DNA of 64,000 bases from Naegleria gruberi (taxonomy: Eukaryota): assembly GCA_000004985.1 (NCBI GenBank), contig GG738858.1; one strand, 5' to 3'. A model generated the notes under the pieces. That model had not been told where the DNA came from. It made no database searches and saw only the letters and a program-made list of their open reading frames with translations. Numbering within the stretch: the first letter of the stretch is position 1; each line of letters opens with the position of its first letter. Of this stretch, positions 2,785-55,649 are shown one piece after another. Position numbers and translations under genes: made by a program.

Positions 2785-2850
2785 AAATTCTTGTCACACT
2801 CATTCAACTAATTCTATCCAATCAAAAATTATCTGTTGTAAATAAATATT

Positions 2851-3809
2851 TTATTGAGATACCACCCCTAGTGATTGTCTCAAAACTGTAGCATACGAAG
2901 CATTTCCTTGAACCATTTCTGGACCTACTTGTTGAAAGAGTTCATCCCTCTTTTCGTCCATACTACTATTAGAAGCACTGTCACTCGAGGAAGATCTTGA
3001 TGAATTTGTTGGTGAGCGAGAATTTTTAGCTCCTCTTTGGTTTGATTTTATGATTTTTGAGATTGGTATCTCAGAAATTGAATTTGTTGGTGAAGTACTA
3101 GTATTTGGAGATTTGACCTGATCATCCTTTTCGTGATTTACTCTGTTTTGAATGGTTGGATGGAAGAATTTGCAATGATAGCCATATTTACATCCCTGCT
3201 TATATGAATAGTGACAGGTACAAAATGTTAAACTATAAGGAATTTCAAATAAAATGTACAAACCTTTCCACTCAAATAAAATGTACAAACTTTAGGTTGG
3301 TAAAATGACACCTCTTCGTCACCATCTTCAAACACTTCACTGTACATACTGATATTTGGTGGAACATATTTTTGTTGATGGTGATGATGATGAGTATTGG
3401 TATTGTGATGATAAGAGTTAGGGGAAGTGAGTTGTTGTTGATTTACAAAATAGGCAGGAGGTTGTGGCATGACTTGACAATAAGGAATCATTGGAGGATT
3501 TGAAATTAATTGTTCTCTTAACAAGATATTATAGTATATCATGAATTCGTTTGGTTGAGGGTGATAGTAAGAGCATTCGATTCCATTCTTACAATATCCA
3601 TTCATAAAATATTTACAAGCAACATTATATTGCTTTGGGTCGATATCATTCATTGGGTTCATAATGATTGACACACTTGTCTGATTGTGTTGTTTTTGAG
3701 ATGAAGAACCACGAAGATAATATTGATTGGTTTTTTTCAATGTGTGTGAGGAAATTCCCCATATGAATGAATCGCTATCGGCAATACAGTCAATTTGTCG
3801 CCGCAACAA
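2851..3809 (-). CDS. Tandem CCCH zinc-finger protein, two exons (ORFs 3228-3809 and 2851-3288 joined by a short intron)
   Basis: Two C-x7-C-x5-C-x3-H motifs: CKYFMNGYCKNGIECSYYH and CHYSYKQGCKYGYHCKFFH. His/Gln-rich N-terminal part, Ser-rich C-terminus. Confidence 0.6.
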
Positions 3810-7578: not shown

Positions 7579-8051
7579 AAGAATCTCTTTTACAAATACT
7601 CAACATCATTTCCTCAATATAAATTTGTGCTTAATATATTCTATCACTCAATCTCACACAAATAATAATTGTTGCGTTTGTGGGCATTCATTGATTTTCA
7701 ATCTCGGTTATGATCAAGTGCAAGATTGTTCTATGCTAGGAGTTTATCGCTTTGGTTTTGTCCATCATCAAAAAAATCCACAAAAGTCCGTTCCCTCGGC
7801 CACACCAAAATTCTTCTTCTTGAAAAACCCTCAAATTCTAACAAGTGGTAGTGTTGTTGGTCCTATTCTTCTTCGCCACACAATACTTCACAATTGATTT
7901 TTTATTTCAAATCCTTCGGAGGAGGTAATATTTAGATTAGCGATAAATATTGTGTTGATCATCACGTTCTTCTCCACCCACAAACGTTCAAAATACAATT
8001 ATATTTACAATAGCAGCACAACAACAACAAGAAAATATATTAAATAAGAGG

Positions 8052-10102
8052 ATGGGAAACAGTGCAACAAAACCAGGTTTAATATCTAAAATTGCCACAT
8101 CAACAAGTACCGACTATAATGCTGCTCGGTTGATGATGGCCGAAGAAGATTATGATGATGAAACTGTAGAACCAGGCTTGATGATTGATTGCAAAGATCA
8201 ACTATTGAAATGTGGGCAAATGGTGGATGGACAATATAAAATTGAAAAGCTCATTGGAAAGGGAACATATGCTCAAGTTTATAAGGCAGAAAAGAAGAGT
8301 GGTAATTATGGAGAAAAATCAAATGTAGCAATCAAGTGTTGCTATTCGAGAAATGATCAGGATTGGAAATTAATTACCTCAGAAATTTTAGCAATGAAGA
8401 GCCTTAACCACACCAATGTTCTTGAGTTTTACGAGTATTTTGAAATCAAAAAAGATCAAACAATAGATACACCAACCACTACAGAGGATTGCACCCAAAG
8501 GAATGAACCACTTGTTGGTATTGTTATGGAATATTGCAATAATGGATCGATTGGAGATTTTCTTAAAAGAAACAAGCATGTGAATGCCGATTTTTTAACA
8601 ATGATCGATTGGTTTATACAGTCAGTCAAGGGATTAAGCTATTGTCACAAAATGAATTTGTGTCACAGAGATATCAAACCACAGTAAGTTATTCTTCGCT
8701 TCCAATCAAAAATCTCAATACCAAATACAGTAACATTCTCATACACTTGCCTCCAGACTCAACCAGTCAGGTAATTAAGTTGTGTGATTTTGGGCTTAGC
8801 TCACTTCTTCAAGATAAGAAAGAAAAACTCAATACTTTCTGTGGATCTCCGATCTATGCTGCTCCTGAAATTAATAGACTTTGCTATACTCTTTCTGTTG
8901 ACATTTATAGTTTGGGAATTTCGTTTCTAGAACTCTTCTCTAAAATTGAAAATAAGGAATTTCATAGTAGAATGTACAATAAGAGTAGAGACGTATCAGT
9001 TCTAACAAAAGTAATTTCAAACATACCTTTAAAATGTTTGCAAAAGATAATTACAGCCATGACCCTATTTGAACCCAAGGAAAGAATAACTGGAGAGGAA
9101 CTACTTGCTCATCCAATAATAAGAGCTCTCGAATCTACAATATTAATGTCCAAAGGTCTATATTCTGCAGATAACTTGGAGAATGCCAATGAAGAATATA
9201 TTGAAACAATATGCGAATTATTAGGGTTTTACCATAATGATACTTCAAGATTTGAGGTTCTATTCCAGCAACTTACCCAATTATTTGAGTACAAACCTCG
9301 ATTATTTGTGGATGTTGTTACCAAACAAATTAATCAAATTGGAGACGAATTTCTTTTCACCCAAGGAGTTTCTTTAGAAGCTCAATCATGTATATTATTC
9401 ATTCTAATTTCAGTTGCTATTACTCTTTGCTCACAAGAGACGCCAGTTCCAAAACGTCATTCCAGTTTAATGGACAAAAAATCCTCACTGTATAATGTTT
9501 TTGTAGATAGTTTAACGGTAATTAGTGAACATTCACCTCATATTGGCGAAGATGTTGAGCTATTGAAAACTAACATTCATCTAATTGCGAATATTAAGCA
9601 ATTTATACTCGAGTTTGCAAATATTGCAGGTGAAACTATTCAGACCACTATTCTAAGCTTCCTAATTCAAACACTAATGATGGATACAGCAAATAGATCT
9701 CCAAACAATTCATCCAATAACTCACCAAAAAATAGCTCTCCTACCTCATTATTTACAATTGATGATAAGTCATTTGTTTTCAATTTGATTAGAGAAATGG
9801 TCATTCGATTTGAAGCATGTAAAGAAATTGTAATTTTAAAAAACAAACAAATGCCAACTCCTTCTACCACAACAATGACAAGCGATCACTACGCTGCTAA
9901 CAGAATTTCACATTCATTTGGATCATCAACGACTGAATACCTAGTAGCTCATGAAGAAACAACGACCACAACCACTACAGCATCAATAGTGGATCCGGAT
10001 GAAACAGCAAATGAGATACTATCCTCAGAGGCATCTATTGAACTGAGAGTTGCTTTCCTTCGTGCTATTCACCAACGATTACTATCCAGTCAAACGTGGT
10101 GA
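8052..10102 (+). CDS. Ser/Thr protein kinase with a long non-catalytic C-terminal region, two exons (intron about 8686-8742)
   Basis: GKGTYAQVYKAEKK..VAIKC (subdomains I-II), HRDIKP at the exon 1 end with a GTAAGT donor, NILI..KLCDFGLS and GSPIYAAPE in exon 2. Confidence 0.8.
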
Positions 10103-22727: not shown

Positions 22728-23027
22728 TGTGTTGTTTCGTATGGTTTTGTTTGGGTTTTTTCAAAGTGGAGTAATGATATTAAAGGGTCAAAAAACCAAA
22801 TTCTTTTTTAATAAGAATGCAATAAACTAAAGCTTTCGTCTGGAGAATTTAAACAATTTTCACAGATTTTGAGAATTGTAAGGAGGCCGCTTTTGTAATT
22901 CCTCCAGATTTTTAGATGGATTTTTGTTGAGTGGAAATATTGAGTTGTTACTAGAGGCATGAAAGTTCTACAAATGGAGTTCCATGATTATTAAATAAGT
23001 TGTAGAAACTGTATTCGAAATTCTAAG

Positions 23028-24497
23028 TTTGGACAAAAAGTGTTTCGTGCAAGTTACATGGTCATAAATTAAACCTAACTGGGATTCATACGGATTCCAT
23101 GGTATTGAAATTTCCTTAATGGGAAGTCTACAGTTTGTTTGTCAACTATGAGTACGGACTGCATGACAAGGTCAACTTACAATTGGTTCCTCAACACTTT
23201 TAAACAAATTCCATTTTATTAATCACAAAGCTTACAATCTAACATGTTTCAGTGCACAAAATAATCTCTGTCAGAAAAATAAGCTTACTGGTACAGTTAT
23301 ATCTGCATACCAAATCAATTAATTTGGACGGTTGATATAGAACACAATTATGAGAGAACCAATAGAAAGTATGAATATTTGCAAGACCAGATACACAAAT
23401 CCATTTAGAATTTTAAAAAGATATTTTCTGTTTATCCGACTACACACCAATAAATACGAAAATAATGAGCTTTATTCTACACGCGCAATATATGATGTAA
23501 ACAACTTTGACATCATACCCATTCCACTTGAACTGTTTCAAAGAAATTTCATGAAATGCATACAGTCTTTTAAGAATTCAAGTTTGACGCCTCCTGTCCC
23601 TTTACCAATTTTAACCTGTAATTTGCACAAACCTAAATGGTACTTTTTGAGATAATTAAAAATGTGTCCTTGGATACGGTTAGAAAATAGGAAACCCATG
23701 CCATTTCATTTTCATGAATACTATAAAGGTTTTTTATAATGGAGTTTTAAAAGTAATTCAAGTTTGGACAAAAAGTGTTTCGTGTAAGTTACATGATCAT
23801 AAATTAAACCTAACTGGGATTCACACGGATTCCATGGTATTGAAATTTCCTTACTGGGAAGTCTACTGTTTGTTTGTCAACTGAGTACGGACTGCATGAC
23901 AAGGTCAACTTACAATTGGTTCCTCAACAATTTTAAACAAATTCCATTTTATTAATCACATAGCTTACAATCTAACATGTTTCAGTGCACAAAATAATCT
24001 CTGTCAGAAAAAAAAGCTTACTGGTACAGTTATATCTGCATACCAAATCAATTAATTTGGACGGTTGATATAGAACACAATTATGAGAGAACCAATAGAA
24101 AGTATGAATATTTGCAAGACCAGATACACAAATCCATTTAGAATTTTAAAAAGATATTTTCTGTTTATCCGACTACACACCAATAAATACGAAAATAATG
24201 AGCTTTATTCTACACGTGCCATATATGATGTAAACAACTTTGACATCATACCCATTCCACTTGAACTGTTTCAAAGAAATTTCATGAAATGCATACAGTC
24301 TTTTAAGAATTCAAGTTTGACGCCTCCTGTCCCTTTACCAATTTTAACCTGTAATTTGCACAAACCTAAATGGTACTTTTTGAGATAATTAAAAATGTGT
24401 CCTTGGATACGGTTAGAAAATAGGAAACCCATGCCATTTCATTTTCATGAATACTATAAAGGTTTTTTATAATGGAGTTTTAAAAGTAATTCAAGTT
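23028..24497. repeat. Two tandem, about 97% identical copies of a 733-bp unit (copy 1 about 23028-23760, copy 2 about 23761-24497), each containing an identical 101-aa ORF (23350-23655 and 24083-24388)
   Basis: Direct read-through identity of the two units. Differences are limited to a few substitutions and small indels. The period comes from the ORF offset (24083-23350=733). Confidence 0.9.
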
Positions 24498-25288: not shown

Positions 25289-25377
25289 CAGAGCAGCTCA
25301 GTTTGAAAATAAATCAATAGAAACCAGATTATTGAAACAGGTAATCTAATTCAATAGTAAGATTTTAAGGAAGTGCA

Positions 25378-25495
25378 TGGCTACGGCCATATCACGATGA
25401 AAGCACCTCATCCCGTCCGATTTGAGAAGTTAAGCATCGTCGAGCCACATCAGTACTGAGGTTGGAGACAACTTGGGAACCTGTGGTGCTGTAGT
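25378..25495 (+). rRNA. 5S ribosomal RNA gene, copy 1, followed by a T5 run
   Basis: GGCTACGGCCATATCACGATGAAAGCACCTCATCCCGTCCGATTTGAGAAGTTAAGC..GGGAACCTGTGGTGCTGTAGTC matches conserved 5S blocks (GCCATA.CAC, ATCCCGTCCGAT.TG, GAAGTTAAGC, GGGAA.ACC.GGTGCTGTAG). T-run Pol III terminator directly 3'. Confidence 0.9.
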
Positions 25496-25528
25496 CTTTT
25501 TACTTCATAGTCAATAGTCAACCAATAA

Positions 25529-26854: not shown

Positions 26855-26937
26855 TGCCAGCGGTGGGGTTCGAACCCACGAACCCATTCGGGATAAGATC
26901 TTAAGTCTTACGCATTTGACCACTCTGCTACGCGGGC
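26855..26937 (-). tRNA. tRNA-Leu (anticodon UAA), class II with long variable arm, 83 nt
   Basis: Minus-strand read GCCCGCG TA GCAG AGTGGTCAAA TGCG TAAGA CTTAAGA TCTTA ..GTGGG TTCGAAC CCCAC CGCTGGC A. T-loop GGTTCGAAC, anticodon loop CUUAAGA. The acceptor stem has one C-U mismatch at pair 4. Confidence 0.8.
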
Positions 26938-34769: not shown

Positions 34770-36563
34770 TTATCTATGCATCAGATTGAGTGTTTCTTCT
34801 ACAATTAGATTTGGACTGGTAAGAGCCATATCAAAATCTGCATCAATTATCTTCCATGCCATTTTGGTGGAATTGTAGTAGGTAGCTAAATCTTGGTGCA
34901 TTGATAAAAAGGCGTTTGCACGTTCTTGTTGATAAATAAGAAAATCATTGCATAGAGCTGTTCCAAAAGAAAGGTAATTGTCCTCGCAAGATCCATAAAG
35001 TAATTTCTTTGATGTGAGTATACTGACTGGAATAATTGTTGAATTTGAAGAATGGAATTGCTGTCTCTTTGCTCTAATATTTATAATATTGCCTGTCGTA
35101 TTTTTCATGTCATCAAGCTCACCCCAAACAGCATTATTGAACTTGTTGATATTTGTTGTATGTTGGTTGTATTTCAGTAAAAGTTGAACAGCTGTTGAAT
35201 TTGGGAAAGATGAAAAATACGTCTTCCAGCCATTCAAGTAATATCGTTCATGGATTGTTCCTAAGGTGGAAGGGAGTTTTTGATAGAAATAATTTGAGAA
35301 ATATCTAGTAAATCCAATAGGTGTTACGAATCTAATGGTATTGGCCATATAGGCTTTCTCTTCTAACATATTGCTTATTTGAGTATCAGTTAAATTATAC
35401 ACACTACCAAGATGATATGTGTCTTGCTTTTCATGAGATGGATGCAACAAGATAACACCCCTCAAGAGTTTTCTGTGATATTCCATGACTGTTCTGGCTG
35501 TGAATGAGGCACTTGAATGTGAAATCAAAATGAATGGTGTTTTGAAAGATGCCTCTTTCACAAGTGCAATCATTTCATTCATTGTTGTATTGCTCAAATC
35601 TCTTGGAAATGGTCCCGAATCGCTGAATCCATATCCTGCTCTCTCAATCACACAAGCTCTCATTCCCTTCTTTGCCAACAGAGTGATTAAACTCTTCATA
35701 TAAGCATATGGTGATGCAACTCCAATATCTGAATCGAGAAGCACTGCATCTTCACTTTCAGAATCTCCTTCACAATACATGTGCATATTCAGTGTTTGAG
35801 CACTCGAGGGTTTAATGCTGTACATGGTTCCAGGGACTTTATATTCATCCTGTGTTATCGAAACTGATTGGACTGTAAACATGATGAATAAGGCACAAAC
35901 TAAAGCCATAAATGTATAGACTAGAAGCTTGATGACTGTTGTAACTCGACAACAAATTCTGGTTCTGAAAAAGCTTTCTTCTCCATACCATTTTTCTTCC
36001 TTCAAATCGAATATTATTGTATTTGATTTTCTAAATTTCTTGAATTGATGATATGCAATTACAAGATATGAAATTGGAGAGATGACAAAAAACAGGCAAA
36101 GCCAACCAGAAAGTCTCTCTCTATTCTCACTATAAAGTCCATAACAAACCCAATTAATCAAACTAGAGATGAAAATAAGTACTCCCCAAAATATTCTCGC
36201 AAAGAGAGCCATGCTATATCCGTCAATATTAATTTGACGAGTTAAATTATCCTTAATAAGTCCTTTCTTTTCAATAAAAGATACAATCCTCTTATACCAT
36301 CTCAATAAAAATAAAGGTCCGAATAGATCAAAAATGAATGTTAATGAAAAAACCATTTGAAATGCACTTGTCCACACAACAGTAGTAGGAGAACCTGCAG
36401 TAAAATATCCTATTTGATCAGAATTACTATTATCCATTGAAATTCCAAACACTACTATGGAGGATAATGCACAAAATAATATTGTTAGAATTGCAACTTT
36501 GTAAATTGCTCCAATTATTCCCTTCTTGGTCTTTTTAGTCTTCTTCTTTGTTGGCTTTTCCAA
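34770..36563 (-). CDS. Membrane-anchored alpha/beta-hydrolase-fold protein, paralog A (N-terminal multi-TM region plus AB-hydrolase-1 domain), intronless
   Basis: ERAGYGFSDSG (the DxRGhGxS-type block) and nucleophile elbow ISHSSAS. Five N-terminal TM helices. Confidence 0.65.
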   Translation of the reverse strand: MEKPTKKKTKKTKKGIIGAIYKVAILTILFCALSSIVVFGISMDNSNSDQIGYFTAGSPTTVVWTSAFQMVFSLTFIFDLFGPLFLLRWYKRIVSFIEKKGLIKDNLTRQINIDGYSMALFARIFWGVLIFISSLINWVCYGLYSENRERLSGWLCLFFVISPISYLVIAYHQFKKFRKSNTIIFDLKEEKWYGEESFFRTRICCRVTTVIKLLVYTFMALVCALFIMFTVQSVSITQDEYKVPGTMYSIKPSSAQTLNMHMYCEGDSESEDAVLLDSDIGVASPYAYMKSLITLLAKKGMRACVIERAGYGFSDSGPFPRDLSNTTMNEMIALVKEASFKTPFILISHSSASFTARTVMEYHRKLLRGVILLHPSHEKQDTYHLGSVYNLTDTQISNMLEEKAYMANTIRFVTPIGFTRYFSNYFYQKLPSTLGTIHERYYLNGWKTYFSSFPNSTAVQLLLKYNQHTTNINKFNNAVWGELDDMKNTTGNIINIRAKRQQFHSSNSTIIPVSILTSKKLLYGSCEDNYLSFGTALCNDFLIYQQERANAFLSMHQDLATYYNSTKMAWKIIDADFDMALTSPNLIVEETLNLMHR

Positions 36564-37701: not shown

Positions 37702-39570
37702 TCAAAAATCTTGAAGAAAAGGAAGTATTAGTTCGGGATGATGTAAAGCAATATCATAATCCGAGGGGATGTGTTTCCAGGAGACGGAGTAGAGCTTGGG
37801 TTGATTTTTGTAAAAATTGAAGAGATCTTGATGGAGGAGTTGGATGATGAAAGATCTTTGGAATTGTTTTTGGAGGAAATCTTGGCAAATTGATGAACCT
37901 TCTGGAAAGAAATTTTGGCTACAATTTCCATTGAGAAGATAGCTTGATGTGAGGATGATTAGAGGGAGTGGTTTTGTTGAATTGGACATTGTTTGTGGAT
38001 TTTCTCTATTATGGATGATCTGCTTATTATTGAATGGGATGGATTTCAACTCACTCCAAACAGTGTTCGTAAATTTGTTGCTATTGAGAACACTATCGTA
38101 AATTTTCAATAATGTTGAATTAGTGAAAGATGGATAGAAGTACTTTTTCACACCATTCATATAATATCTATCATACCAATTATCCTTTTCATTTTCCTCC
38201 AATAATCCAAAAACTCGAAATATTCCAATAGGAACCAGCATTCTAATGGTATTCACATGGCTTACTTCAGTATTGTAGTGTTCCTCTACTGTTTCATTCT
38301 TGACAAATGTTCTCAGTAATGATTCTTCTTGCTTTTCATGAGATGGATGCAACAAGATAACACCCCTCAAGAGTTTTCTGTGATATTCCATGACTGTTCT
38401 GGCTGTGAATGAGGCACTTGAATGTGAAATCAAAATGAATGGTGTTTTGAAAGATGCCTCTTTCACAAGTGCAATCATTTCATTCATTGTTGTATTGCTC
38501 AAATCTCTTGGAAATGGTCCCGAATCGCTGAATCCATATCCTGCTCTCTCAATCACACAAGCTCTCATTCCCTTCTTTGCCAACAGAGTGATTAAACTCT
38601 TCATATAAGCATATGGTGATGCAACTCCAATATCTGAATCGAGAAGCACTGCATCTTCACTTTCAGAATCTCCCTCACAATATAGATGAAGGTTAATTGT
38701 CTGTGTGTCTTTGGAATATAAGGGCACCTGAACTGTTTGACCTGGCATGCTTTGAATTCCTGCCAAGATAGATACAGCCTGAATAACACAACCTATTAGT
38801 ACCACAATTAGTAGAGTTGTAAATATTAACACTGAAATATGGGCTGCTTTCATGAAGTATTTCATTATGGTTGATCTTTTAGAATACAAAAACAGATAGA
38901 TTTCATGGCAATTTTGTGTCTTTTTGTGCTTATGCTTTCCAAATTTTTCCTCATAGTATTCCTTGACATACCTTCCTTTAACAAACTGGTAATATTTTGT
39001 TAACAAATCAAAGATTACATTACTTACTTGATATACAATCACTAGAATATATGCAATCATTGGAATTAATCCAGAGAATGCAAACCAACCAGTCAATCTA
39101 TCTCTACTCTCCTTTACAGTATATGAAATCCAAATAATGGAAAGCAATAGCATTGTTACAATGGTAATTAATAATTTGATAATTAACATCAGAATAGAAG
39201 TATCCCATGATAGATACATGTAATTTGTATAATTAGTAACAAAAATCTTTTTCCTTTTAATACTAAATCCCATCATACAGCCCATAATTGGTATGAAATA
39301 TGAATCAATAATTAATAATCCAATGTAAAATAGCATTACAATAGAAATCCAAAATATTGTAACTGGTGATCCACTTGTATAAAATCCACTATTCGACACT
39401 ACATTAGCAGCACTAACAGACATTGTAACTATATATGAAATCAAAAAGAATATCAGTGTTATAGTGCTAATTTTGTACAGTGAATGAAAAATCTTCTCCA
39501 CATGTTTGAGTTCACTCGGCTTGGAAACAATTTTTGGACTTGTACTAATTGGAGAACCTTGCATTTCCAT
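37702..39570 (-). CDS. Membrane-anchored alpha/beta-hydrolase-fold protein, paralog B (tandem duplicate of 34770-36563)
   Basis: Same architecture as paralog A. A central 117-aa block is identical to paralog A. The flanking regions are divergent. Confidence 0.65.
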   Translation of the reverse strand: MEMQGSPISTSPKIVSKPSELKHVEKIFHSLYKISTITLIFFLISYIVTMSVSAANVVSNSGFYTSGSPVTIFWISIVMLFYIGLLIIDSYFIPIMGCMMGFSIKRKKIFVTNYTNYMYLSWDTSILMLIIKLLITIVTMLLLSIIWISYTVKESRDRLTGWFAFSGLIPMIAYILVIVYQVSNVIFDLLTKYYQFVKGRYVKEYYEEKFGKHKHKKTQNCHEIYLFLYSKRSTIMKYFMKAAHISVLIFTTLLIVVLIGCVIQAVSILAGIQSMPGQTVQVPLYSKDTQTINLHLYCEGDSESEDAVLLDSDIGVASPYAYMKSLITLLAKKGMRACVIERAGYGFSDSGPFPRDLSNTTMNEMIALVKEASFKTPFILISHSSASFTARTVMEYHRKLLRGVILLHPSHEKQEESLLRTFVKNETVEEHYNTEVSHVNTIRMLVPIGIFRVFGLLEENEKDNWYDRYYMNGVKKYFYPSFTNSTLLKIYDSVLNSNKFTNTVWSELKSIPFNNKQIIHNRENPQTMSNSTKPLPLIILTSSYLLNGNCSQNFFPEGSSICQDFLQKQFQRSFIIQLLHQDLFNFYKNQPKLYSVSWKHIPSDYDIALHHPELILPFLQDF

Positions 39571-47443: not shown

Positions 47444-47559
47444 TTTCGATAACGAGTGAAACAAGAGTTTCAATAAATATAGCCCGAGTTTAATGTGAAT
47501 AAAATTTGCTTTCAAAGATTTTCAATATTCTTTATATTTATTGTGTTAAGGTAATGAAT

Positions 47560-47677
47560 GGCTACGGCCATATCACGATGAATGCACCTCATCCCGTCCG
47601 ATTTGAGAAGTTAAGCATCGTCGAGCCACATCAGTACTGAGGTTGGAGACAACTTGGGAACCTGTGGTGCTGTAGTC
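47560..47677 (+). rRNA. 5S ribosomal RNA gene, copy 2 (one substitution relative to copy 1: GAATGC vs GAAAGC), followed by T5
   Basis: 118-nt match to copy 1. Preceded by about 75 bp that is shared with copy 3. Confidence 0.9.
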
Positions 47678-47790
47678 TTTTTATCACACATTAATTTCGA
47701 TAAATAGATGATTCACAGCACCAAAAAAAAGGAAATTCAACTTTTTCAACACTCATTGGAATTGCTGATTTACAGAGCTCAACAGCCAAT

Positions 47791-48927
47791 TTAGAAACAC
47801 TTTCTATGAACAAAACCTGGACCAGCCTCCTCATATTCCTCTTTCGATATCCACATCTGCTGAAAGGTTGCAAGACTCGCGAGGATACTACCTCCAATCC
47901 AAACTGAATACTTTCTTTCAGGTGGGGCGACAACCTTTATCTTCATTGAGGCTGGTGCCAAAGCAGTCAATTCCTTGGTCATTCTTTCAGCAATACCTTC
48001 GAACATGGTATTACCACCTGACAAGACAACATTTCCATACAATTCCTTTCTAATGTCAATGTCACATTTACCAATTGAGTTGAATGCCATTTCATGAACA
48101 CCAGCAGCCTCCATTTTTTCAACCAAATTAGGTTGGAATAAAACTTCTGGACATCTGAATCGTTCGTTACCAATTGTTATCACATTACCATCTGGTAATT
48201 CGTATAACTTTTCCACGGAGGATGATTCAGCAGCAACTTTCATTTCAGCTTCGAAATCTAAAGCAATATAACAGAGCTTTTCCTTAATACCTCTGACAAC
48301 TTCTCTTTCAGCAGTAGTATTGAATGAGTAACCTCTTTCCATCAAAATATTCATCAAACAATCAGTCAAGTCACGACCAGCCAAATCCAATCTCAAAATG
48401 GCATGTGGCAAGGCATAACCTTCATAAATTGGAACAGTGTGTGAAACACCATCACCAGAATCCAAAACTATACCAGTACTTCTACCAGAAGCATACAATG
48501 ACAAGACAGCTTGAATGGAAACATACATGGCCGGAACTGAGAAGGTTTCAAACATGATTTGACTCATCTTTTCTCTATTTGGCTTTGGATTAAAAGGAGC
48601 TTCAGTCAACAAGACTGGATGTTCCTCAGGAGCAACACATAATTCATTGTAGAAGGTGTGATGCCAGATCTTTTCCATATCATCCCAATTAGTAACAATA
48701 CCGTGCTCAATTGGATACCTTAAAGTCAAGACACCACACTTGTATTGAGCTTCATCACCAACATAGGCATCCTTACCAAACATTCCAATCATGATTGACT
48801 TTTGCTTTGGTCTAGCAACAATTGAGGGAAAGACAGCTCTTGGAGCATCATCACCAGCAAAACCAGCTTTACACATACCAGAACCGTTGTCAACAACGAG
48901 AGTTTGAACGTCTTCATAGAAAGACAT
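47791..48927 (-). CDS. Actin (about 80% identical to conventional actin), intronless. The likely start is the Met of [17 protein letters not shown] at 48927; the ORF extends 21 codons further upstream to 48990.
   Basis: [103 protein letters not shown], terminal VHRKCF. A-rich context AAAAAAAACAAATCAAATG precedes the internal Met. Confidence 0.9.
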
Positions 48928-49219
48928 TTGATTTGTTTTTTTTAAAGTTTGTTCATCTGGACAACATTTGACAATTTGAAGTTGACTCAAGTCTTCATAT
49001 CAGAGCTATCAGTCATATCCGTCAAGTAAATGAAAAAAGAACTTTTGAATTTTTGCTGGTTCCTAAATTTAGAAAATATTGAAATGATATGGAGTTGGAT
49101 TGTTCTTTGTTCGATAGTAATTCAAAATAATTCAAAGATTGTTGTGAACATCCCTTGTTGAAGATCAATAGGTAAGAATGCTTACCATTCCCCAAATGAT
49201 TTCATCTATATTTCAGTTT

Positions 49220-50218
49220 TTATTCAAATATTCTAATGGAAAAGGCCTGTTGATCAGCAATGAACAATAATCCACTTTTCTCATCAAAATCCATTCCAAA
49301 TGGGCTTAGTGTAGATGTAGAATCTTGTATGTGTGAATGTATTAAATTTCCATCCAAATCAAACACTAAAATTCTCTTATTATCATAATCTGAAAGGAAG
49401 AATTTCTTGCCAGTTCTATCAATTGCAAATCCTAATGGTTGACTACAGGGAATATTATCCACTTGGTTAATTGTTCGAATTAATTTCCATTCATTTGGAT
49501 TAATCTCATCATAAATAAAGCAGGCATTAACAGCAAGATCTGAAACAATCATCCTATTTGGTCTAAGAAATTTAACATCCACTATTCTACTGAGATTTTC
49601 AAGTTTGAGCTGGGCAATAATTTTGCCATCTGTGGTATCTATGACATCCATCTCTTTGCTCATATTGTTAAATCTGAATAATTGTTTCCGATTTCCAATT
49701 TCTCTGATGGCCATTCCATATTGATGATTAGTCTCAATACTCCAAATACATTCAGCTTCATTTCCCAATTTCAATAAATCCTTAACTCTATATTTCCCTA
49801 AACCATTTGAGCATCTAAAGTAAATGGCGTCATTATTAAAATTTTCTTCAATCACTAAACTCATACATCTGCCAACAATTGGAAATGCTGTCAAATATTC
49901 TAAACTAGTCAAATCAAAAAATTTAATTTCCTTATTCGCATCATCAGCCACACAAACAAAGTTATGGGTGTGAGAAATCTTTACATCGGATGGAAAGCGA
50001 AGACCATGATTCTTGTTTGAATCAATTTTTTTAATTTCATTAAACTTCATTGCAAACGGAATTGTTTTCTGATAATTTCTCATCTTGTTTTTTAATTGAT
50101 CAAATAAAACATGATCGGATTTTAATTGATCAAAATCGAGCAGGGAAACATTTAGAGAGCGTGTGTCCTCTTCCTGCAATAATTGGTGAAGAAGATTCGG
50201 AGAAGGTTGTTGCGACAT
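49220..50218 (-). CDS. NHL-repeat (beta-propeller) protein (332 aa)
   Basis: Repeated blocks of the type PxGxAxD..G..aVsDxxNxRIxxF, e.g. LSPFGMDFDEKSGLLFIADQQAFSIRIFE and FFLSDYDNKRILVFD. Confidence 0.5.
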   Translation of the reverse strand: MSQQPSPNLLHQLLQEEDTRSLNVSLLDFDQLKSDHVLFDQLKNKMRNYQKTIPFAMKFNEIKKIDSNKNHGLRFPSDVKISHTHNFVCVADDANKEIKFFDLTSLEYLTAFPIVGRCMSLVIEENFNNDAIYFRCSNGLGKYRVKDLLKLGNEAECIWSIETNHQYGMAIREIGNRKQLFRFNNMSKEMDVIDTTDGKIIAQLKLENLSRIVDVKFLRPNRMIVSDLAVNACFIYDEINPNEWKLIRTINQVDNIPCSQPLGFAIDRTGKKFFLSDYDNKRILVFDLDGNLIHSHIQDSTSTLSPFGMDFDEKSGLLFIADQQAFSIRIFE

Positions 50219-50405
50219 TTTTTTTTAATTTATTTTTACAACAGTTTCAATCTTTGTAACCAAACTGTGCAAGAAACACTGGAATTTGAGAGTTTTTAGT
50301 ATTCTTTACAATATAGGTCCAGCCTTGTTTAATATATAACATGAATAAATTTTGCTTTCGGAGATTTTCAATATTCTTTATATTCATTGTATTAAGGTAA
50401 TGAAT

Positions 50406-50523
50406 GGCTACGGCCATATCACGATGAAAGCACCTCATCCCGTCCGATTTGAGAAGTTAAGCATCGTCGAGCCACATCAGTACTGAGGTTGGAGACAACT
50501 TGGGAACCTGTGGTGCTGTAGTC
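50406..50523 (+). rRNA. 5S ribosomal RNA gene, copy 3 (identical to copy 1), followed by T5
   Basis: 118/118 identity with 25378-25495. Shares about 75 bp of upstream sequence with copy 2. Confidence 0.9.
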
Positions 50524-50704
50524 TTTTTAATTAAGTTTTAAGACACATGAATCTTTAAAGTTGTTCATGTAGTCTTTTTGAGGAGAATTTTACTCCCTGT
50601 TCAAAGTATTAACATTTGATATTTGGGCATTTAATTAAAGTAGTACCACAACATCTTTCTCGGCCAATTGGCTTTGATCGAGTGAAGTTTCTGTTCTTTT
50701 CAGT

Positions 50705-51094
50705 TTAATAGCTGAAAGCAGCCCAAGGGTTGCCTCCTCTCAATCTCAATACTAAATGCACAGTTGAGTCCTTTTGAAGATTGTAATCATTAATGGTTCT
50801 GCCATCTTCCAATTGTTTTCCTGCATAAATCAATCGTTGTTGATCTGAAGGAATACCTTCTTTATCAAATATCTTTTGTTTCATATTCTCAACAGTATCA
50901 CTCGATTCCATTTCAATTGTAATTGTCTTTCCAGTTAAGGTTTTTACTTGTTTTCCAGCAAAGATGAGTCTTTGTTGATCTGGTGAAATTCCTTCCTTTT
51001 CTTGAACTTTTCTTTTCACATTTTCAATTGAATCATTAGATTCAACTTCCAAAGTGATTGTTCTACCAATGAGTGTCTTGACGAATAATTGCAT
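50705..51094 (-). pseudogene. Degenerate ubiquitin-like gene: Ub(1-49) fused in frame to Ub(5-76) plus an 8-aa tail, with multiple substitutions relative to the near-invariant ubiquitin sequence
   Basis: [49 protein letters not shown] | [80 protein letters not shown]. Canonical ubiquitin differs at 15 or more positions. Confidence 0.6.
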
Positions 51095-51096
51095 TA

Positions 51097-52477
51097 TGTT
51101 TGTTGTTTTTTTTTCTTATTGTTTTTCTTTGAATTCAAAGCATTTCTTTGCATTTTATTCTTGTAAACCTCCATTCCAATAAGATTTGGTTGAAATAATA
51201 TCTCAGTAGTTTTGAATCTTTCATTCCCAAGTGAAATTACATTTCCATCTGGCAATTCTAGACCGTGGGAGGTGAGAAGGATTGACAAATATTTTAAAAA
51301 AAAATTAAGAAGTCACTCAAAAAACAATTTGTTAAAGTCGAGCCGAAGGTTTATTGGACCAAGAGTGAGACAGTGTGTTCAAAGTATCAATTACCACTTG
51401 TTCTTCTAGAAACAAGTACTTCTGGGTTCTTGTACATGAACCTTCGCTTTAATGTACCAACAATTTCAAGTAAATGGGCAGGCACTTATCTAGATGATGT
51501 TTTGGTGAGGTGAATGTAGTAATGGCTGGTGAGGAAGGAAGCAAAGGGAGAACTCTCCTCATGGTGGCTTCTCAAGGTAGCATGCTGAAGGTGGGAATAC
51601 CAACCAATATACCTATTTAGCAGGGTGATGATGAAATCATGATGAGTAATTGTTGTTTGTTGTTTTTTTTTGTTGAATATTTAACGGTCAGAACAGACAA
51701 CTTTCAGCGGTTATTGGTTGGCGCGAAATTACCGTGATGTAACATTTTTTAGCTCACCTCCCTCGGTCTAGGCAATTCATATAAACTTTCTTTCGCTGTT
51801 TCTGCCAAAAAATTACTGGCAACATAACCAGTTTTTTCCTTCATATCCCTGACTAGTTCAGTTTCACCCATCGTGCTGAAATTATATCCTCGTTCCATTA
51901 ACATTTTCTTCAAATAATCTGTCAGGTCTTTGCCTCCTAATTCCAATCTTTTGGTGGCATGTGACAGGGCATATCCTTCATAAACAGGTACTGAATTAGT
52001 GACGCCATCACCTGATTCCAATACTACACCTGTCATTCTACCATTTGCAAATATTGACATGGCACATTGATTTGCCAAACACAAACCTCTCACCTTAAAA
52101 CTTTCAAACATGATTTGTGTCATTTTCACTTTCACATCCTTTGAATTTAGTGGCATTTCCATCAGTAATACTTCATGCTCCTCAGGAGCAACTCTTAACT
52201 CATTGTAAAATGTATGATGCCATATCTTTTCCATATGATACCAATCTGAAATTAATCCACGATCAATTGGATATTTGTAAACATTAATACCCCTCCTACA
52301 CAATGCATAATCTCCAACGTAAGTTTCGATAGAGCCCATTGAAAGGAGGAAGGGTGCTACTTTTCGATGTGAAGTTACTGTGGGAAAGACTGCTCGTGGA
52401 GCATAATCACCAGAAAAACCAGCTTTCATTTGAGAGGAACCATTATCAATGATGAGTGGTGGATTTTCATCAGTCAT
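51097..52477 (-). pseudogene. Truncated divergent actin paralog interrupted by a 512-bp MITE-like insertion. The coding parts are 51771-52477 and 51097-51258; the stop TAA overlaps the ATG of the downstream ubiquitin-like ORF as TAATG.
   Basis: [76 protein letters not shown] | insertion | [28 protein letters not shown], then a basic tail. Lacks about 100 C-terminal actin residues. Confidence 0.7.
51259..51770. mobile_element. Non-autonomous DNA transposon (MITE-like), 512 bp, with 18-bp terminal inverted repeats (TAGACCGTGGGAGGTGAG .. CTCACCTCCCTCGGTCTA, 17/18 match) and an exact 8-bp target site duplication GGCAATTC at 51251-51258 and 51771-51778
   Basis: TIR and TSD read directly from the sequence. 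Removing the element and one TSD copy restores the in-frame actin sequence ..[18 protein letters not shown]... No ORF of significance inside. Confidence 0.8.
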
Positions 52478-52575
52478 TTTTTTTTGTAAGTTTTAAATTG
52501 GGAACTTGGAACAATATTTCACTTGCATTAAAAGTTCAAAATTTTTGTGATTATCTCAATAATATAAAATCTTAA

Positions 52576-52646
52576 CTCGAACGCCGGGAATTGAACCCGG
52601 GTCGCCAGAGTGACAGTCTGGAATGCTACCACTATACCACGCCCGA
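52576..52646 (-). tRNA. tRNA-Asp (anticodon GUC), 71 nt
   Basis: Minus-strand read TCGGGCG TG GTA TAGTGGTAG CAT TCCAGA CTGTCAC TCTGG CGA CCCGG GTTCAAT TCCCGG CGTTCGA G. Anticodon loop CUGUCAC. Acceptor stem closes with two G-U pairs. Confidence 0.85.
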
Positions 52647-52779: not shown

Positions 52780-54060
52780 GTGGAAACTTCTCTATTTGTT
52801 TCAGATGTGCATTTTCGAAAATGCATCTTTTTTTTCAAATATGAATCACAAATGGACAAAGTTGATGGAAACACAACCAAAAAAATGGATCCACAACTAA
52901 CGTTCAAGGCATACAGCAAGATTGAAAATCATCATCAGGAGAGTTTCGTTTCAAAGTTATTGGAAAAGGAAACTGAAGATTCGGATAAGAAATTGGAATG
53001 GGTTTGCTTGGAGAAAGTGCATGGTAGCAATTTCAGCTTTATTGTTGTTCCTAAAGAAGGATCACAAGATAAAGTTGAAGTATTGAAAGCAAATCGTACC
53101 AATGTTCTTACCATATTAAGTAATTTCTTTGTGGAAGCTCAAAAAGAAGTTTACGAAAGATATTACAAGAGTTGTGTTAAATTATTCGAAATTATTTCTC
53201 AAAATGCAGAAAAATTCAAACGAAAGACTATGGAAACTGAAAGTGAAATTACAAAAATTCACATATTTGGTGAATTATTTGGTGGATACTTTCCAAAATT
53301 GAAAAATGATCAAGATTCGAATGGTATTCGTAAAGCACACATTCAAAAAGGTGTTTACTATTGTCCACATTATGATTTTTACGTATTTGATGTGGCAGTG
53401 ACATTTGGCGACCAAGATACTTGGTTACTTTTCGATGAGGCAGATCCAATTCTTGAAGAAGCAGGATTTAGAGTTAGAGCTAAACCACTTTTTAGAGGTT
53501 CATTGAAGGAATGTTTGGATTTTGATGTGGAAATTAACACGATAATTCCACAAACTTTTTATTCTGACATTTTGACAGAAAATGATATTTTATTTAAGGA
53601 AAAGGAAAATATTTGTGAAGGAGTGGTGATTAAACCTGCTAATGGTACTGTATTTGTCGGATCGAGGGCAATTATTAAGAAGAAGAATTCAAAATTTACT
53701 GAAGTCAATCCTGCCAAAGATAAATCTAAACGAATGAAGAAACAGGAAAAATCTGTGGATCAAGACGAACAAGAAATGATTTCTAATGTGTGGAATGAAA
53801 TTGAGCGATATTTGAATAATAATCGTCTTGATAATGTCGTTTCCAAAGTTGGAAATATTACTAGAGAAAATCTTTCACTTGTTTTGAAGAATTTTGTGAA
53901 CGATGCCATTGAGGATTATGATAAAGATCAACAAGAATTGGGAGAAGAAGGAGCTACCCTATCATCCCTTCCAGTCAACATTCAAAAATCAATCAAGAAG
54001 AAATTGGGATCCACCTGTCAAGCAATTCTTCTAAAATACATGAACGAAAACAAACAATAA
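52780..54060 (+). CDS. ATP-dependent RNA ligase of the Rnl2 family (nucleotidyltransferase motifs I, III, IV, V), intronless, 426 aa
   Basis: Motif I EKVHGSN (KxHGxN lysine-adenylate site). Motif III IHIFGELFGGYFP. Motif IV CEGVVIKPANG. Motif V AIIKKKNSKF. The true start may be the internal Met (MDKVDG) at about 52852. Confidence 0.75.
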   Translation: METSLFVSDVHFRKCIFFFKYESQMDKVDGNTTKKMDPQLTFKAYSKIENHHQESFVSKLLEKETEDSDKKLEWVCLEKVHGSNFSFIVVPKEGSQDKVEVLKANRTNVLTILSNFFVEAQKEVYERYYKSCVKLFEIISQNAEKFKRKTMETESEITKIHIFGELFGGYFPKLKNDQDSNGIRKAHIQKGVYYCPHYDFYVFDVAVTFGDQDTWLLFDEADPILEEAGFRVRAKPLFRGSLKECLDFDVEINTIIPQTFYSDILTENDILFKEKENICEGVVIKPANGTVFVGSRAIIKKKNSKFTEVNPAKDKSKRMKKQEKSVDQDEQEMISNVWNEIERYLNNNRLDNVVSKVGNITRENLSLVLKNFVNDAIEDYDKDQQELGEEGATLSSLPVNIQKSIKKKLGSTCQAILLKYMNENKQ

Positions 54061-54293: not shown

Positions 54294-55649
54294 TTGTTAT
54301 CAATCAATATGAAGGAAATAATAACAATTCATGTCGGAGGGGCCGGATGTCAAATAGGCGATCAGTTGTGGGAGTTATATTGTAAGGAACACGGTATACA
54401 ACGTGCTGCAGATCATCATACCAATAATACAACCTCCATGATGGAATCATCAGCTGCCTTTTCATCAGCAGAGAGTTTGTTCTATGAAACGAGTCATACA
54501 GAAAAGCAACAATATGTTCCATTGGCTATCTTTTTCGATAACGACTCATCAAGAGTGCACGAATCGAGGAAGAGATTTGGTAACTTAATGTCCTCAGACA
54601 ATATGATTGGAGGTAAGGAAGATGCTGCCAATAATTTTGTGAGAGGATGCTACACGATTGGAAAGGAGAATATGGATACAGTCTTGGAGAGGATTAGAAT
54701 ATTGAGTGAGAAGTGTGATAGTTTGCAGGGAATTAATGTTGTGAACTCGTTGGGAGGAGGAACAGGCTCTGGATCAGGAACATTATTGCTTGATAGAATG
54801 AGTATAGACTTTGCAAAGGTTCCAATTCATTTGAATACTGTTGCACCATCTCCAAAATTGTATGATACAGTTGTGGAACCATATAATTTTTGTTGGGCTA
54901 TGGAACCAATGTGTGAAAAGGGATGCACAGCAACTTTTTATGATAATGAGGCCTTGTACAATGTTTGTGGAAATCATTTGGGAATTAATGATCCGAAATT
55001 AGCTGATATTAATCAAATTATTGCACACCACATTTCCACAAGCTTTTCCAGTTGTAGAATTGGATCTAATTGTGCAATGCCTGTTTCATTTGGAGATGTA
55101 AATCAGACACTTGTTCCAATTCCAAACTTTGAATTACTTACCCCTTCATTTGTACCATTTGGTTCTGCTCAGAACGAGTTGAGTATGGCAGAGAGGGGCA
55201 AACTTGCATTTAGTCCTTCCAACACTTTGATTTCTTACAACATCTTGGAAGGAAAAATGCTGAGCTCACTGTTAAGTTATAGAGGAAATGTAACTATGGG
55301 AGATAACTTTGAATGTTTGAGTGCTGTCAAAAAGATGGAGGGTATTTCTATGGGCCCTTCTTGGATTCCAAATACTTTCAGTTGCCACATCTCCAAAGCT
55401 CCAACAACTCTTTTGGATGATTCAGTTCTTGGGGTTGTGCCAAGTGAAAAGATGCTTGCAGTAACAACCAACACAACTGCCATCACCAAAAAATTGAATC
55501 AAATTATGGTAAACTTTGATAAAATGTATGAAAAGAGAGCATTTGTTCATTGGTATGTTGGAGAGGGCATAGAAGATGAATATTTTAGATATGGAAGATC
55601 TATACTCGAAGAAAAGGTTGCCACCTATGGAGAGTTGATTTCACAATAA
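54294..55649 (+). CDS. Highly divergent alpha-tubulin-like protein, intronless (451 aa)
   Basis: MKEIITIHVGGAGCQIGDQLWELYCKEHGIQ. GKEDAANNFVRGCYTIGKE. GTP-binding box SLGGGTGSGSG. TTNTTAI. KRAFVHWYVGEGIEDEYF. Long stretches between these blocks are unlike canonical alpha-tubulin. Confidence 0.75.
   Translation: MLSINMKEIITIHVGGAGCQIGDQLWELYCKEHGIQRAADHHTNNTTSMMESSAAFSSAESLFYETSHTEKQQYVPLAIFFDNDSSRVHESRKRFGNLMSSDNMIGGKEDAANNFVRGCYTIGKENMDTVLERIRILSEKCDSLQGINVVNSLGGGTGSGSGTLLLDRMSIDFAKVPIHLNTVAPSPKLYDTVVEPYNFCWAMEPMCEKGCTATFYDNEALYNVCGNHLGINDPKLADINQIIAHHISTSFSSCRIGSNCAMPVSFGDVNQTLVPIPNFELLTPSFVPFGSAQNELSMAERGKLAFSPSNTLISYNILEGKMLSSLLSYRGNVTMGDNFECLSAVKKMEGISMGPSWIPNTFSCHISKAPTTLLDDSVLGVVPSEKMLAVTTNTTAITKKLNQIMVNFDKMYEKRAFVHWYVGEGIEDEYFRYGRSILEEKVATYGELISQ

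Follow-up and report, generated by a model that had tools for sequence, protein, structure and literature searches.

The window, the whole stretch of 64 kb that was analysed, covers roughly 672-736 kb of scaffold_14 of Naegleria gruberi NEG-M, to which exact protein matches assign it. It carries three 5S rRNA genes (Table 1) that are already known, being catalogued in the 5S census of PMC3369914, and the coordinates and spacings in Table S1 of that work agree with those of the window. Each gene matches the full Rfam RF00001 model (positions 1-120) with 105-106 bits, compared to a gathering score of 38. These matches and the sequence itself bear out the initial annotation in its claim of three plus-strand 5S genes, each followed by TTTTT, and its starts at 47560 and 50406 are correct. 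However, Rfam gives a length of 119 nt and not 118 nt, and copy 1 begins at 25379 and not at 25378. The 3' end of each gene reads ...GTAGTCTTTTT, with the run of at least four T residues of a Pol III terminator (TTTTT in 3/3 copies). The box A pattern of PMC3369914 has a single match within the gene, at +50, and a box C match with two mismatches is found at +80, in agreement with a type-1 internal control region; the IE pattern is not specific enough to add information. Copies 1 and 3 are identical in sequence to a 5S copy from a metagenome (L002). Copy 2 is set apart from the other two by A24T, and the genes of copies 2 and 3 are identical at 118 of 119 positions. T24 is also present in the orthologue of copy 2 from a related strain (ENA, L003) and in 4/4 N. 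lovaniensis copies examined.

The copies are spaced by 22,181 and 2,846 bp with protein genes in between, and hence do not form a tandem array, as had been noted before. Three copies in 64 kb point to a local enrichment, since 0.44 would be predicted from the 279 published copies and an assumed genome size of ~41 Mb (Poisson P(>=3) = 0.01). Rfam detects no large rRNA in the window, and the 5S genes are thus not linked to the 18S-5.8S-28S unit; the Naegleria rDNA resides on an extrachromosomal plasmid (PMC12482156). Judged from their sequence, the three loci are ordinary, probably functional members of the dispersed N. gruberi 5S family, and the standard type-1 model would predict their use by Pol III.

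Table 1. Position of the 5S rRNA genes, their upstream flanks and their neighbours in the window.
Feature	Position	Strand	Description
Proximal 14 bp upstream of copy 1, TTAAGGAAGTGCAT	25365..25378	+	in-register match to TTAAGGTAATGAAT at 11/14 positions, binomial p = 1e-4
5S rRNA copy 1	25379..25497	+	Rfam RF00001, 106.3 bits; canonical sequence; T-run 25497-25501; scaffold_14:697379 in PMC3369914 Table S1
tRNA-Leu	26855-26937	-	near copy 1
64-bp upstream block, copy 2	47496..47559	+	59/64 identical to 50342-50405; TATATTTA at -27..-20, TTAAGG at -14
5S rRNA copy 2	47560..47678	+	Rfam RF00001, 105.4 bits; A24T variant, loop B; T-run 47678-47682; scaffold_14:719563 in PMC3369914 Table S1
Actin gene NAEGRDRAFT_44432	47791..48927	-	ORF, exact protein match; 378 aa; shares 88-90% identity with other N. 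gruberi actins; convergent with copy 2
NHL-repeat protein EFC46663	49220..50218	-	ORF; start codon 188 bp from copy 3, divergent orientation
64-bp upstream block, copy 3	50342..50405	+	homologous to copy 2 block
5S rRNA copy 3	50406..50524	+	Rfam RF00001, 106.3 bits; canonical sequence; T-run 50524-50528; scaffold_14:722406 in PMC3369914 Table S1
U2 snRNA-like element	50651..50773	+	Rfam RF00004, 74.2 bits vs gathering 46; 5' ~87 nt well aligned
Degenerate di-ubiquitin-like ORF EFC46664	50705..51094	-	fusion of Ub residues 1-49 with 5-76, and 8 additional residues
Detached actin fragment, actin residues ~243-271	51168..51258	-	tblastn 74% over 27 aa; blastn 72% to 48108-48201
Truncated actin-like ORF EFC46665	51749..52477	-	242 aa; 53% identity with neighbouring actin, residues 10-245
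tRNA-Asp(GTC)	52576..52646	-	ARAGORN and Rfam; belongs to local small-RNA gene cluster

Neighbours of the 5S genes

Two of the 5S genes are convergent with the gene downstream. Copy 2 ends at 47678, leaving 112 bp to the actin stop codon, and copy 3 ends at 50524, leaving 180 bp to that of the ubiquitin-like ORF, which confirms the distances (~110 and ~180 bp) and the opposite strands given in the initial annotation. The U2-like element sits in the 180-bp gap after copy 3 and extends over the ~22 terminal codons of the ubiquitin-like ORF, and the 8 extra residues of EFC46664 are encoded antisense to it. Within the element GUGAAGUU replaces the consensus GUGUAGUA, and the otherwise invariant branch-point recognition sequence GUAGUA is thereby altered. 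The Rfam RF00004 alignment reveals neither a clear Sm site nor 3' stem-loops and leaves the 3' 100 model positions essentially without a counterpart; this unaligned 3' region is antisense to ubiquitin-coding sequence. Folding of the element yielded no informative structure (z = -0.8). It is probably a fragment or pseudogene. The U2-like element, the A24T change of copy 2 and the nearby tRNA-Leu and tRNA-Asp had not been part of the initial annotation.

Upstream flanks within and between Naegleria species

Upstream of copies 2 and 3 lies an ungapped block of 64 bp with 92% identity (59/64, binomial p ~1e-27). Beyond -64 (8/36 identities) and after TTTTTA (9/30 identities) the similarity of the two copies is not above shuffles. 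A shared upstream sequence of ~75 bp followed by divergence had been described earlier; homology and outside divergence hold, but the length is 64 bp. An extension to about -90 and ~25 bp past the terminator, suggested by MAFFT, was dropped because these stretches are not above shuffles. Among the four independent N. gruberi-type 5S flanks that we compared, those of different copies are generally unrelated (copy 1 and L002 versus copies 2 and 3), and the copy 2/3 pair is the exception. The block is absent from copy 1 and from L002, whose flanks are at shuffle level compared to copies 2 and 3, and in L002 this is the case even though the 5S gene is identical to that of copy 1. Only the last ~14 bp of the copy 1 flank resemble the block, the remaining flank being at background. 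Thus, the block is no obligatory part of N. gruberi 5S loci, and the idea that it might accompany every 5S copy does not hold. In the locus of the related strain that is orthologous to copy 2 (L003) the block is kept with a single mismatch, located inside the TATA-like motif. Since both the block and T24 are kept there, the copy 2/3 pair is older than that strain split. We consider it probable that the 64-bp block is the flank signature of one 5S subfamily and no obligatory promoter, and the last ~15 bp and the AT-rich patch near -25 are at most candidate promoter-proximal elements.

Four N. lovaniensis 5S copies have in common a species-specific upstream block of 35-65 bp that ends at the gene, indicating that the pattern is genus-wide. 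Between species, including N. fowleri versus N. lovaniensis, no pair of upstream regions is clearly above shuffles (best 5/500 among 36 tests), and conservation of an upstream Pol III promoter element between species was not found. The sole recurring upstream element across species is TGAAT at -5..-1, which N. fowleri and all four N. lovaniensis copies share with copies 2 and 3. Copies 1-3 have TTAA at -14; its position is -15 in L002 and -11 in N. fowleri. The stretch from -33 to -16 is AT-rich in every copy, and only copies 2 and 3 contain a clear TATA-like string, at -27. In N. lovaniensis one 5S copy is preceded, at a distance of 233 bp, by a tRNA-Met of the same strand.

These motifs could also be read in functional terms, the block being a selected upstream Pol III control region with a TATA-like sequence near -27 and a TTAAGG/TGAAT proximal element, and the block-bearing copies being the active ones. 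Such a control region would be plausible if N. gruberi truly is without TFIIIA, and a TATA box and the lack of detectable TFIIIA have been described (PMC3369914). The positions of TATATTTA and TTAAGG, the proximal 14 bp common to copy 1 (11/14), the TGAAT directly before +1 in three species, the upstream block in 4/4 N. lovaniensis copies and a within-species homology that ends exactly at the transcript end in every pair are in line with it. However, copy 1 and L002 have identical genes and yet no block, and no significant upstream similarity is seen between species, not even between N. fowleri and N. lovaniensis, which are sister species. Moreover, the sole substitution in the related-strain block falls in the TATA-like motif, the five mismatches between copies 2 and 3 are scattered over the block without sparing any particular motif, and TATA-like strings are frequent in a genome of 34% GC. 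We therefore regard a selected control region as unlikely.

The dispersed 5S family of Naegleria

The census lists 279 putative N. gruberi 5S genes on 117 scaffolds and describes an internal control region and an upstream TATA box, without a link to the rDNA unit (PMC3369914). The family is rated as 'tandem' there, but its own coordinates describe a dispersed family with close pairs. In Table S1 an excess of pairs lies 1.5-3.5 kb apart, with 22 neighbour gaps <=3 kb compared to 3.3 expected, and the smallest spacing is 1.1 kb, save for one 462-bp pair that involves a weak partial match. Shared upstream blocks, the actin neighbourhood and the U2-like element are not described in PMC3369914. A 22-nt 5S pattern retrieved one real Naegleria contig (L002) and one spurious match (L001) from JGI metagenomes, and nothing from prokaryotic genome contigs or viral contigs.

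A search for actins returned five conventional N. gruberi actins among the best 120 matches; with 279 5S copies, a general 5S-actin linkage cannot hold. A 5S gene is found <2 kb from actin at one N. fowleri locus and at 2/3 N. lovaniensis loci, which is only suggestive of a 5S-actin proximity in these species commoner than the N. gruberi density predicts. Orthologous loci anchored on the RNA ligase gene (N. lovaniensis, N. fowleri, ENA Naegleria) contain no 5S, U2 or tRNA gene, indicating that the small-RNA cluster is specific to the N. gruberi lineage; the ligase itself is the sole neighbour common to these loci. At orthologous sites of N. fowleri and N. lovaniensis, 5S genes differ in presence or absence and, in one case, in orientation. 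An extra N. lovaniensis locus picked at random (L020) has no 5S gene.

Dispersed 5S gene families exist in Neurospora crassa and Schizosaccharomyces pombe, and both species, like Arabidopsis, have a TATA-like 5S promoter element near -30/-25. Yarrowia lipolytica has 108 scattered 5S copies (PMC2566860). These fungal families resemble that of Naegleria in consisting of about a hundred or more single Pol III units that have no linkage to the large rDNA, are flanked for the most part by unrelated sequence and carry short AT-rich or TATA-like upstream elements. In contrast to them, Naegleria has a marked surplus of pairs 1.5-3.5 kb apart and species-specific upstream blocks of 35-65 bp. Half of the Yarrowia copies are tRNA-5S dicistronic genes, while none of the window copies has a tRNA directly before it. 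A Yarrowia-type fusion was rejected here, as the tRNA genes of the window have the opposite orientation (minus strand) and follow copies 1 and 3 at distances of 1.4 and 2.1 kb.

Drouin and de Sa in 1995 reportedly described 5S genes linked to histone, spliced-leader, snRNA and ubiquitin repeats. The position of 5S genes beside ubiquitin-, actin- and U2-related sequences is similar, but those cases are tandem units in which both genes are co-amplified, while in the window each partner is a single, degenerate copy and only two such arrangements are present. SINE3-type SINEs are mobile elements derived from 5S. Cassandra TRIMs have the same origin (bioRxiv 10.1101/2023.07.14.548913). As in these elements, the window copies are dispersed 5S-related sequences with an internal Pol III promoter; however, they are complete 5S genes with their own terminator and without a non-5S body, an LTR or a LINE-like tail. 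A retroelement or SINE origin was rejected, since there is no target-site duplication, no tail and no flush direct repeat, and the flanks are unrelated directly outside.

Colinear 5S-actin units and the origin of the cassette

Homology between the surroundings of copies 2 and 3 extends beyond the 5S genes. Three colinear segments were identified: the 5S cassette (47491-47683 and 50337-50529, 96% identity) and two actin segments (48108-48201 and 51168-51258, 72%; 48263-48972 and 51819-52522, 66%), with offsets that increase from 2846 to 3060 and 3556. The same order and orientation, from 5S to the 3' part and then the 5' part of actin, is hence present twice. The 5S-to-actin spacers of the two units show no homology, and no second copy was found of the NHL-repeat gene that lies between the units. 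Divergence is uneven, at 7.8% in the upstream block compared to ~34% in the actin segments, and by hand calculation the Jukes-Cantor distance K is ~0.08 in the block and ~0.45 between the two actins. Divergence in the actin parts hence exceeds that of the supposedly neutral 64-bp flank about fivefold, contrary to the even divergence of a segmental duplication. The actin-like copy differs from the neighbouring actin at 33/25/48% of the three codon positions, indicating that it is old. The actin-like ORF has the canonical residue wherever the neighbouring actin is derived, so that descent from that very neighbour is no more than a supposition. Homology ends exactly at the T-run, in the copy 2/3 pair as well as in 6/6 N. 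lovaniensis pairs. Such an end point is unlike the random ends of conversion or duplication and fits upstream constraint or transcript-sized copying at least as well.

The initial annotation had offered two explanations, an old segmental duplication of a 5S-plus-actin module or a 5S unit with its own upstream element, and each captures a part of these data. The colinear order speaks for the former, while the unequal divergence, the unrelated spacers and the unduplicated NHL-repeat gene speak against it. The discrete ~190-bp cassette (-64 to the T-run) and the N. lovaniensis blocks are in line with the latter, but the block is absent from copy 1 and L002 and the blocks of different species are unlike each other. 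It seems reasonably likely that ordinary members of the 5S family took part in an old, by now eroded 5S-actin duplication, and that the ~190-bp cassette was converted or copied again later. Each 5S copy would be a self-contained unit that works wherever it is inserted, with an AT-rich 5' flank, an internal control region (box A at +50, box C-like element at +80) and a T5 terminator. Copies 2 and 3, 96% identical over the ~190-bp cassette, would be a local paralogous pair inside an older colinear duplication that also took along the actin gene. One actin would have remained intact and the other decayed to the disrupted actin-like ORF, with the degenerate di-ubiquitin and the U2-like fragment now placed between the decayed actin and 5S copy 3. 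A later homogenisation or re-copying is suggested by the far higher similarity of the cassette compared to the actin parts. Gene conversion between the two nearby 5S genes may have been the homogenising step, or else the cassette may have been copied anew.

Alternatively, the cassette (about -64 to the T-run) might have been copied independently into a second site, by a reverse-transcribed, upstream-initiated transcript or by templated break repair. The vicinity of actin would then reflect insertion or retention near highly expressed genes and no co-duplication. The sharp boundaries at -64 and at the terminator would fit such a process, as would the genome-wide surplus of 5S pairs in adjacent intergenic regions, the differences in presence and orientation between N. 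fowleri and N. lovaniensis, and the 5S genes near actin in these two species when compared with the N. gruberi density. However, the cassette ends lack target-site duplications, terminal repeats and an A-tail, 5S primary transcripts normally begin at +1 so that an RNA copy should be without the block, and co-duplication accounts for the colinear actin homology more simply. Independent copying is thus quite improbable. Least probable is a single old duplication of the whole module with likeness by descent alone, because, despite the colinear segments in the same orientation, neither the spacers nor the region beyond -64 are homologous, and a flank free of constraint would be expected to have diverged no less than actin, with its ~34%, and 48% at third codon positions, a contradiction that only a strongly constrained block, and hence the control region discussed above, would remove.

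Beyond bookkeeping, the significance of the preferred reading, an old duplication with a later event in the cassette, is small. The description of the N. gruberi 5S family is corrected from 'tandem' to dispersed with close pairs, and the annotated 'predicted proteins' EFC46664 and EFC46665 are decayed ubiquitin and actin copies adjoining a U2-like fragment. A broader and rather doubtful conjecture is that Naegleria 5S genes in general multiply as transcript-sized cassettes (about -65 to the T-run) into neighbouring intergenic regions, with fast turnover and beside actin, small-RNA genes and edges of segmental duplications, behaving like mobile elements without transposon hallmarks. If cassette-like copying were true genome-wide, Naegleria would be convenient for studying the birth, homogenisation and loss of dispersed Pol III genes.

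5S rRNA genes of the window and their genomic setting

The proteins of the window match EFC46533-46541 and EFC46658-46666 of N. gruberi NEG-M exactly. As the initial annotation described, the three 5S rRNA genes (copies 1, 2 and 3) are found on the plus strand and each ends in TTTTT; all score 105-106 bits against a Rfam gathering score of 38. Copies 1 and 3 are identical in sequence, and copy 2 differs by a single A24T in the unpaired loop B. Within the internal control region, box A is found at precisely +50, and box C, which has two mismatches, at +80. Because each gene has a standard internal control region and a T-run terminator, dispersal is tolerated, and we regard these as ordinary dispersed 5S genes.

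For N. gruberi, a published survey that compares 5S systems gives 279 putative genes, among them scaffold_14:697379, 719563 and 722406 (PMC3369914 Table S1). Their spacings of 22,184 and 2,843 bp agree with those in the window (22,181 and 2,846 bp), hence the three genes were already catalogued and the feature is of a known kind. When parsed, the 279 entries of Table S1 are spread over 117 scaffolds with a smallest spacing of 1.1 kb, one weak partial hit excepted. The table holds no true tandem arrays and the N. gruberi family is dispersed, not tandem; Table 1 of PMC3369914 scores it as tandem. Neighbour gaps of up to 3 kb number 22 in Table S1 versus 3.3 expected at random, and those of up to 4 kb number 29. 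Close 5S pairs, located in adjacent intergenic regions, are clearly in excess across the genome, and copies 2 and 3 form one of them. Local enrichment is modest, with three copies in 64 kb versus 0.44 expected (Poisson p = 0.01). Both expectations, for close gaps and for copies per 64 kb, assume an N. gruberi genome size of 41 Mb.

Copy 2 sits where a PI31-like ORF and actin (NAEGRDRAFT_44432) converge across a gap of 347 bp; the end of copy 2 and the actin stop are 112 bp apart. Copy 3 and an NHL-repeat gene are divergently oriented, with 188 bp between copy 3 and that gene's start codon, and 127 bp downstream of copy 3 follows a U2 snRNA-like element that the initial annotation did not mention. 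The 5' ~87 nt of this element align well to U2, and the model's 3' half stays unaligned. At the otherwise invariant site for branch-point recognition it reads GUGAAGUU in place of GUGUAGUA. Its right part runs antisense to the end of a degenerate ubiquitin ORF where RLRGG is encoded, and the element is followed by TTTT. The element looks like a fragment or pseudogene. EFC46664 is a decayed ubiquitin copy, 1.65 units long and internally deleted, and EFC46665 is a decayed actin copy; both carry the annotation 'predicted protein'. Between the detached actin fragment and the actin-like ORF lie ~500 bp of unrelated sequence. Two tRNA genes, also absent from the initial annotation, lie 1.4-2.1 kb away from copies 1 and 3.

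Two further repeats occur in the window. A 356-bp repeat (35422-35777 / 38327-38682, 99.7% identity), whose surroundings lack similarity, sits within two minus-strand ORFs (34770-36563 and 37702-39570) and may have arisen when one paralogue recently converted a patch of the other. A tandem duplication of ~680 bp (23019-23700 / 23755-24433) has 98% identity.

Small-RNA genes, decayed ORFs and homologous segments in the window and at N. lovaniensis loci
Feature	Sequence	Position	Strand	Remark
5S rRNA gene copy 1	window	25379-25497	+	Rfam, full length
5S rRNA gene copy 2	window	47560-47678	+	Rfam, full length
5S rRNA gene copy 3	window	50406-50524	+	Rfam, full length
tRNA-Leu	window	26855-26937	-	same scans
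tRNA-Asp	window	52576-52646	-	same scans
U2 snRNA-like element	window	50651-50773	+	Rfam
Degenerate ubiquitin ORF EFC46664	window	50705-51094	-	Ub residues 1-49 fused to 5-76, plus eight extra residues
Detached actin fragment	window	51168-51258	-	residues 243-271
Actin-like ORF EFC46665	window	within 51168-52477	-	242 aa; N-terminal 236 residues; 53% identical to neighbouring actin
Homology, 5S cassette	window	47491-47683 / 50337-50529		96%
Homology, actin part	window	48108-48201 / 51168-51258		72%
Homology, actin part	window	48263-48972 / 51819-52522		66%
5S gene	L018	5360-5478	+	
5S gene	L018	5918-6036	-	
5S gene	L018	8280-8398	-	
5S gene	L019	7987-8105	-	
tRNA-Met	L019	8339-8410	-	233 bp upstream of 5S, same strand

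The shared upstream block and the history of copies 2 and 3

Upstream of copies 2 and 3 lies a common ungapped block (47496-47559 vs 50342-50405) in which 59/64 positions are identical; the block is real, but it spans 64 bp and not the 75 bp first proposed. In-register identity is 14/15, 18/19 and 27/30 inside the block, and falls to 8/36 beyond -64 (counted from 5S +1) and 9/30 past the T-run. Since identity is high inside and low outside, the repeated unit is a discrete ~190-bp cassette reaching from -64 to the terminator. A multiple-alignment hint of extension to about -90 and ~25 bp past the terminator did not exceed shuffled controls on either side. No flush direct repeats were found around the cassette.

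Copy 1 matches only the last 14 bp of the block (TTAAGGAAGTGCAT vs TTAAGGTAATGAAT, 11/14, p = 1e-4), the remainder of its upstream flank being at background level. On L002, a Naegleria-like metagenome contig retrieved by a 22-nt 5S pattern, the 5S gene is identical in sequence and has a T4 terminator, but the block is absent. Thus, the block is not general in N. gruberi. Another metagenome contig (L003, ENA) is a related strain's orthologue of the copy 2 locus. The block persists there with a single mismatch, inside the TATA-like TATATTTA, and the L003 5S gene retains T24 and has an extra G25A that turns a G-U pair into A-U. The copy 2/3 pair is therefore older than that strain split.

Sensitive alignment of the two units, copy 2 plus actin and copy 3 plus the ubiquitin-like and actin-like ORFs, recovers three homologous stretches that are colinear, with order and orientation preserved, and this favours descent of both units from one 5S-plus-actin segment. 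The divergences are unequal, however: 7.8% of sites differ in the block, ~34% in the actin parts and 48% at actin third codon positions (hand-calculated Jukes-Cantor distances of ~0.08 for the block and ~0.45 for the actin parts). An unconstrained flank of equal age should have diverged at least as much as the actin copy. The spacers of the two units are unrelated, and their comparison revealed no second copy of the NHL-repeat gene between them. The simplest reading is an old 5S-plus-actin duplication, since eroded, in which conversion between the two neighbouring 5S genes later homogenised the 5S cassette, or the cassette was copied anew. Because the actin-like ORF has the canonical residue where the neighbouring actin is derived, its descent from that actin is plausible only. 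The initial annotation had offered either an old segmental duplication of this kind or a 5S repeat unit with its own upstream promoter element. Each is right in part: the colinear homologies and the discrete cassette speak for them, the unequal divergence and the lack of the block at copy 1 and L002 against.

5S upstream regions in other Naegleria species

We compared loci from N. fowleri and N. lovaniensis assemblies, most of them picked via actin. One N. fowleri actin locus (L009; L012 is a second, nearly identical contig) has a 5S gene (8504-8622) 1.4 kb upstream of actin. It borders on a segmental duplication containing a 100-aa gene and actin, lying ~20 bp outside the boundary (vs L008/L010). 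5S genes are present at two of three N. lovaniensis actin loci, three in L018 and one in L019. All four share a species-specific upstream block, strongest at -34 to -1 and traceable to about -65, all four have the T24 of window copy 2, and their homology also stops at the T-run. Between species no significant upstream similarity was found, including the single N. fowleri copy versus N. lovaniensis; only TGAAT just before +1 recurs. At one orthologous intergenic site (L009, L018) the 5S gene is reversed between the two species without flank homology, and the L019 stretch with 5S and tRNA-Met has no detectable counterpart in the orthologous N. fowleri locus L008. The N. lovaniensis loci L014 (RNA ligase) and L020 (random pick) contain no 5S genes. 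Orthologous RNA-ligase loci, N. fowleri and N. lovaniensis among those examined, contain no 5S, U2 or tRNA genes; the small-RNA gene cluster of the window is specific to the N. gruberi lineage.

The Rnl2-type RNA ligase of the window (52849-54060, plus strand; EFC protein P0141) has orthologues in N. fowleri, N. lovaniensis and Willaertia. It adjoins a divergent tubulin-family ORF (54294-55649, plus strand), whereas the downstream neighbour in N. fowleri and N. lovaniensis is a T4 Rnl1-like ligase. In L014 a piggyBac-type transposase gene (DDE_Tnp_1_7, 6591-8524) is located 1.5 kb upstream of the ligase orthologue.

Proposed conversion, possible promoter function and the question of actin linkage

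The block pattern fits co-duplication and conversion better than a fixed promoter. Even so, the block could include a functional upstream element, in line with a TATA box reported in N. gruberi, where TFIIIA is reported absent (PMC3369914), and with the notable fact that the 3' homology boundary coincides exactly with the terminator. A general 5S-actin linkage cannot hold, because there are 279 5S copies, and the best 120 hits of the actin search include only five conventional actins of N. gruberi. In three species 5S genes recur no more than 2 kb away from actin, which is suggestive only, most loci having been picked via actin. Shared short upstream blocks among nearby 5S copies appear to be a genus-wide property; the blocks evolve in a lineage-specific manner and are not required in N. 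gruberi.
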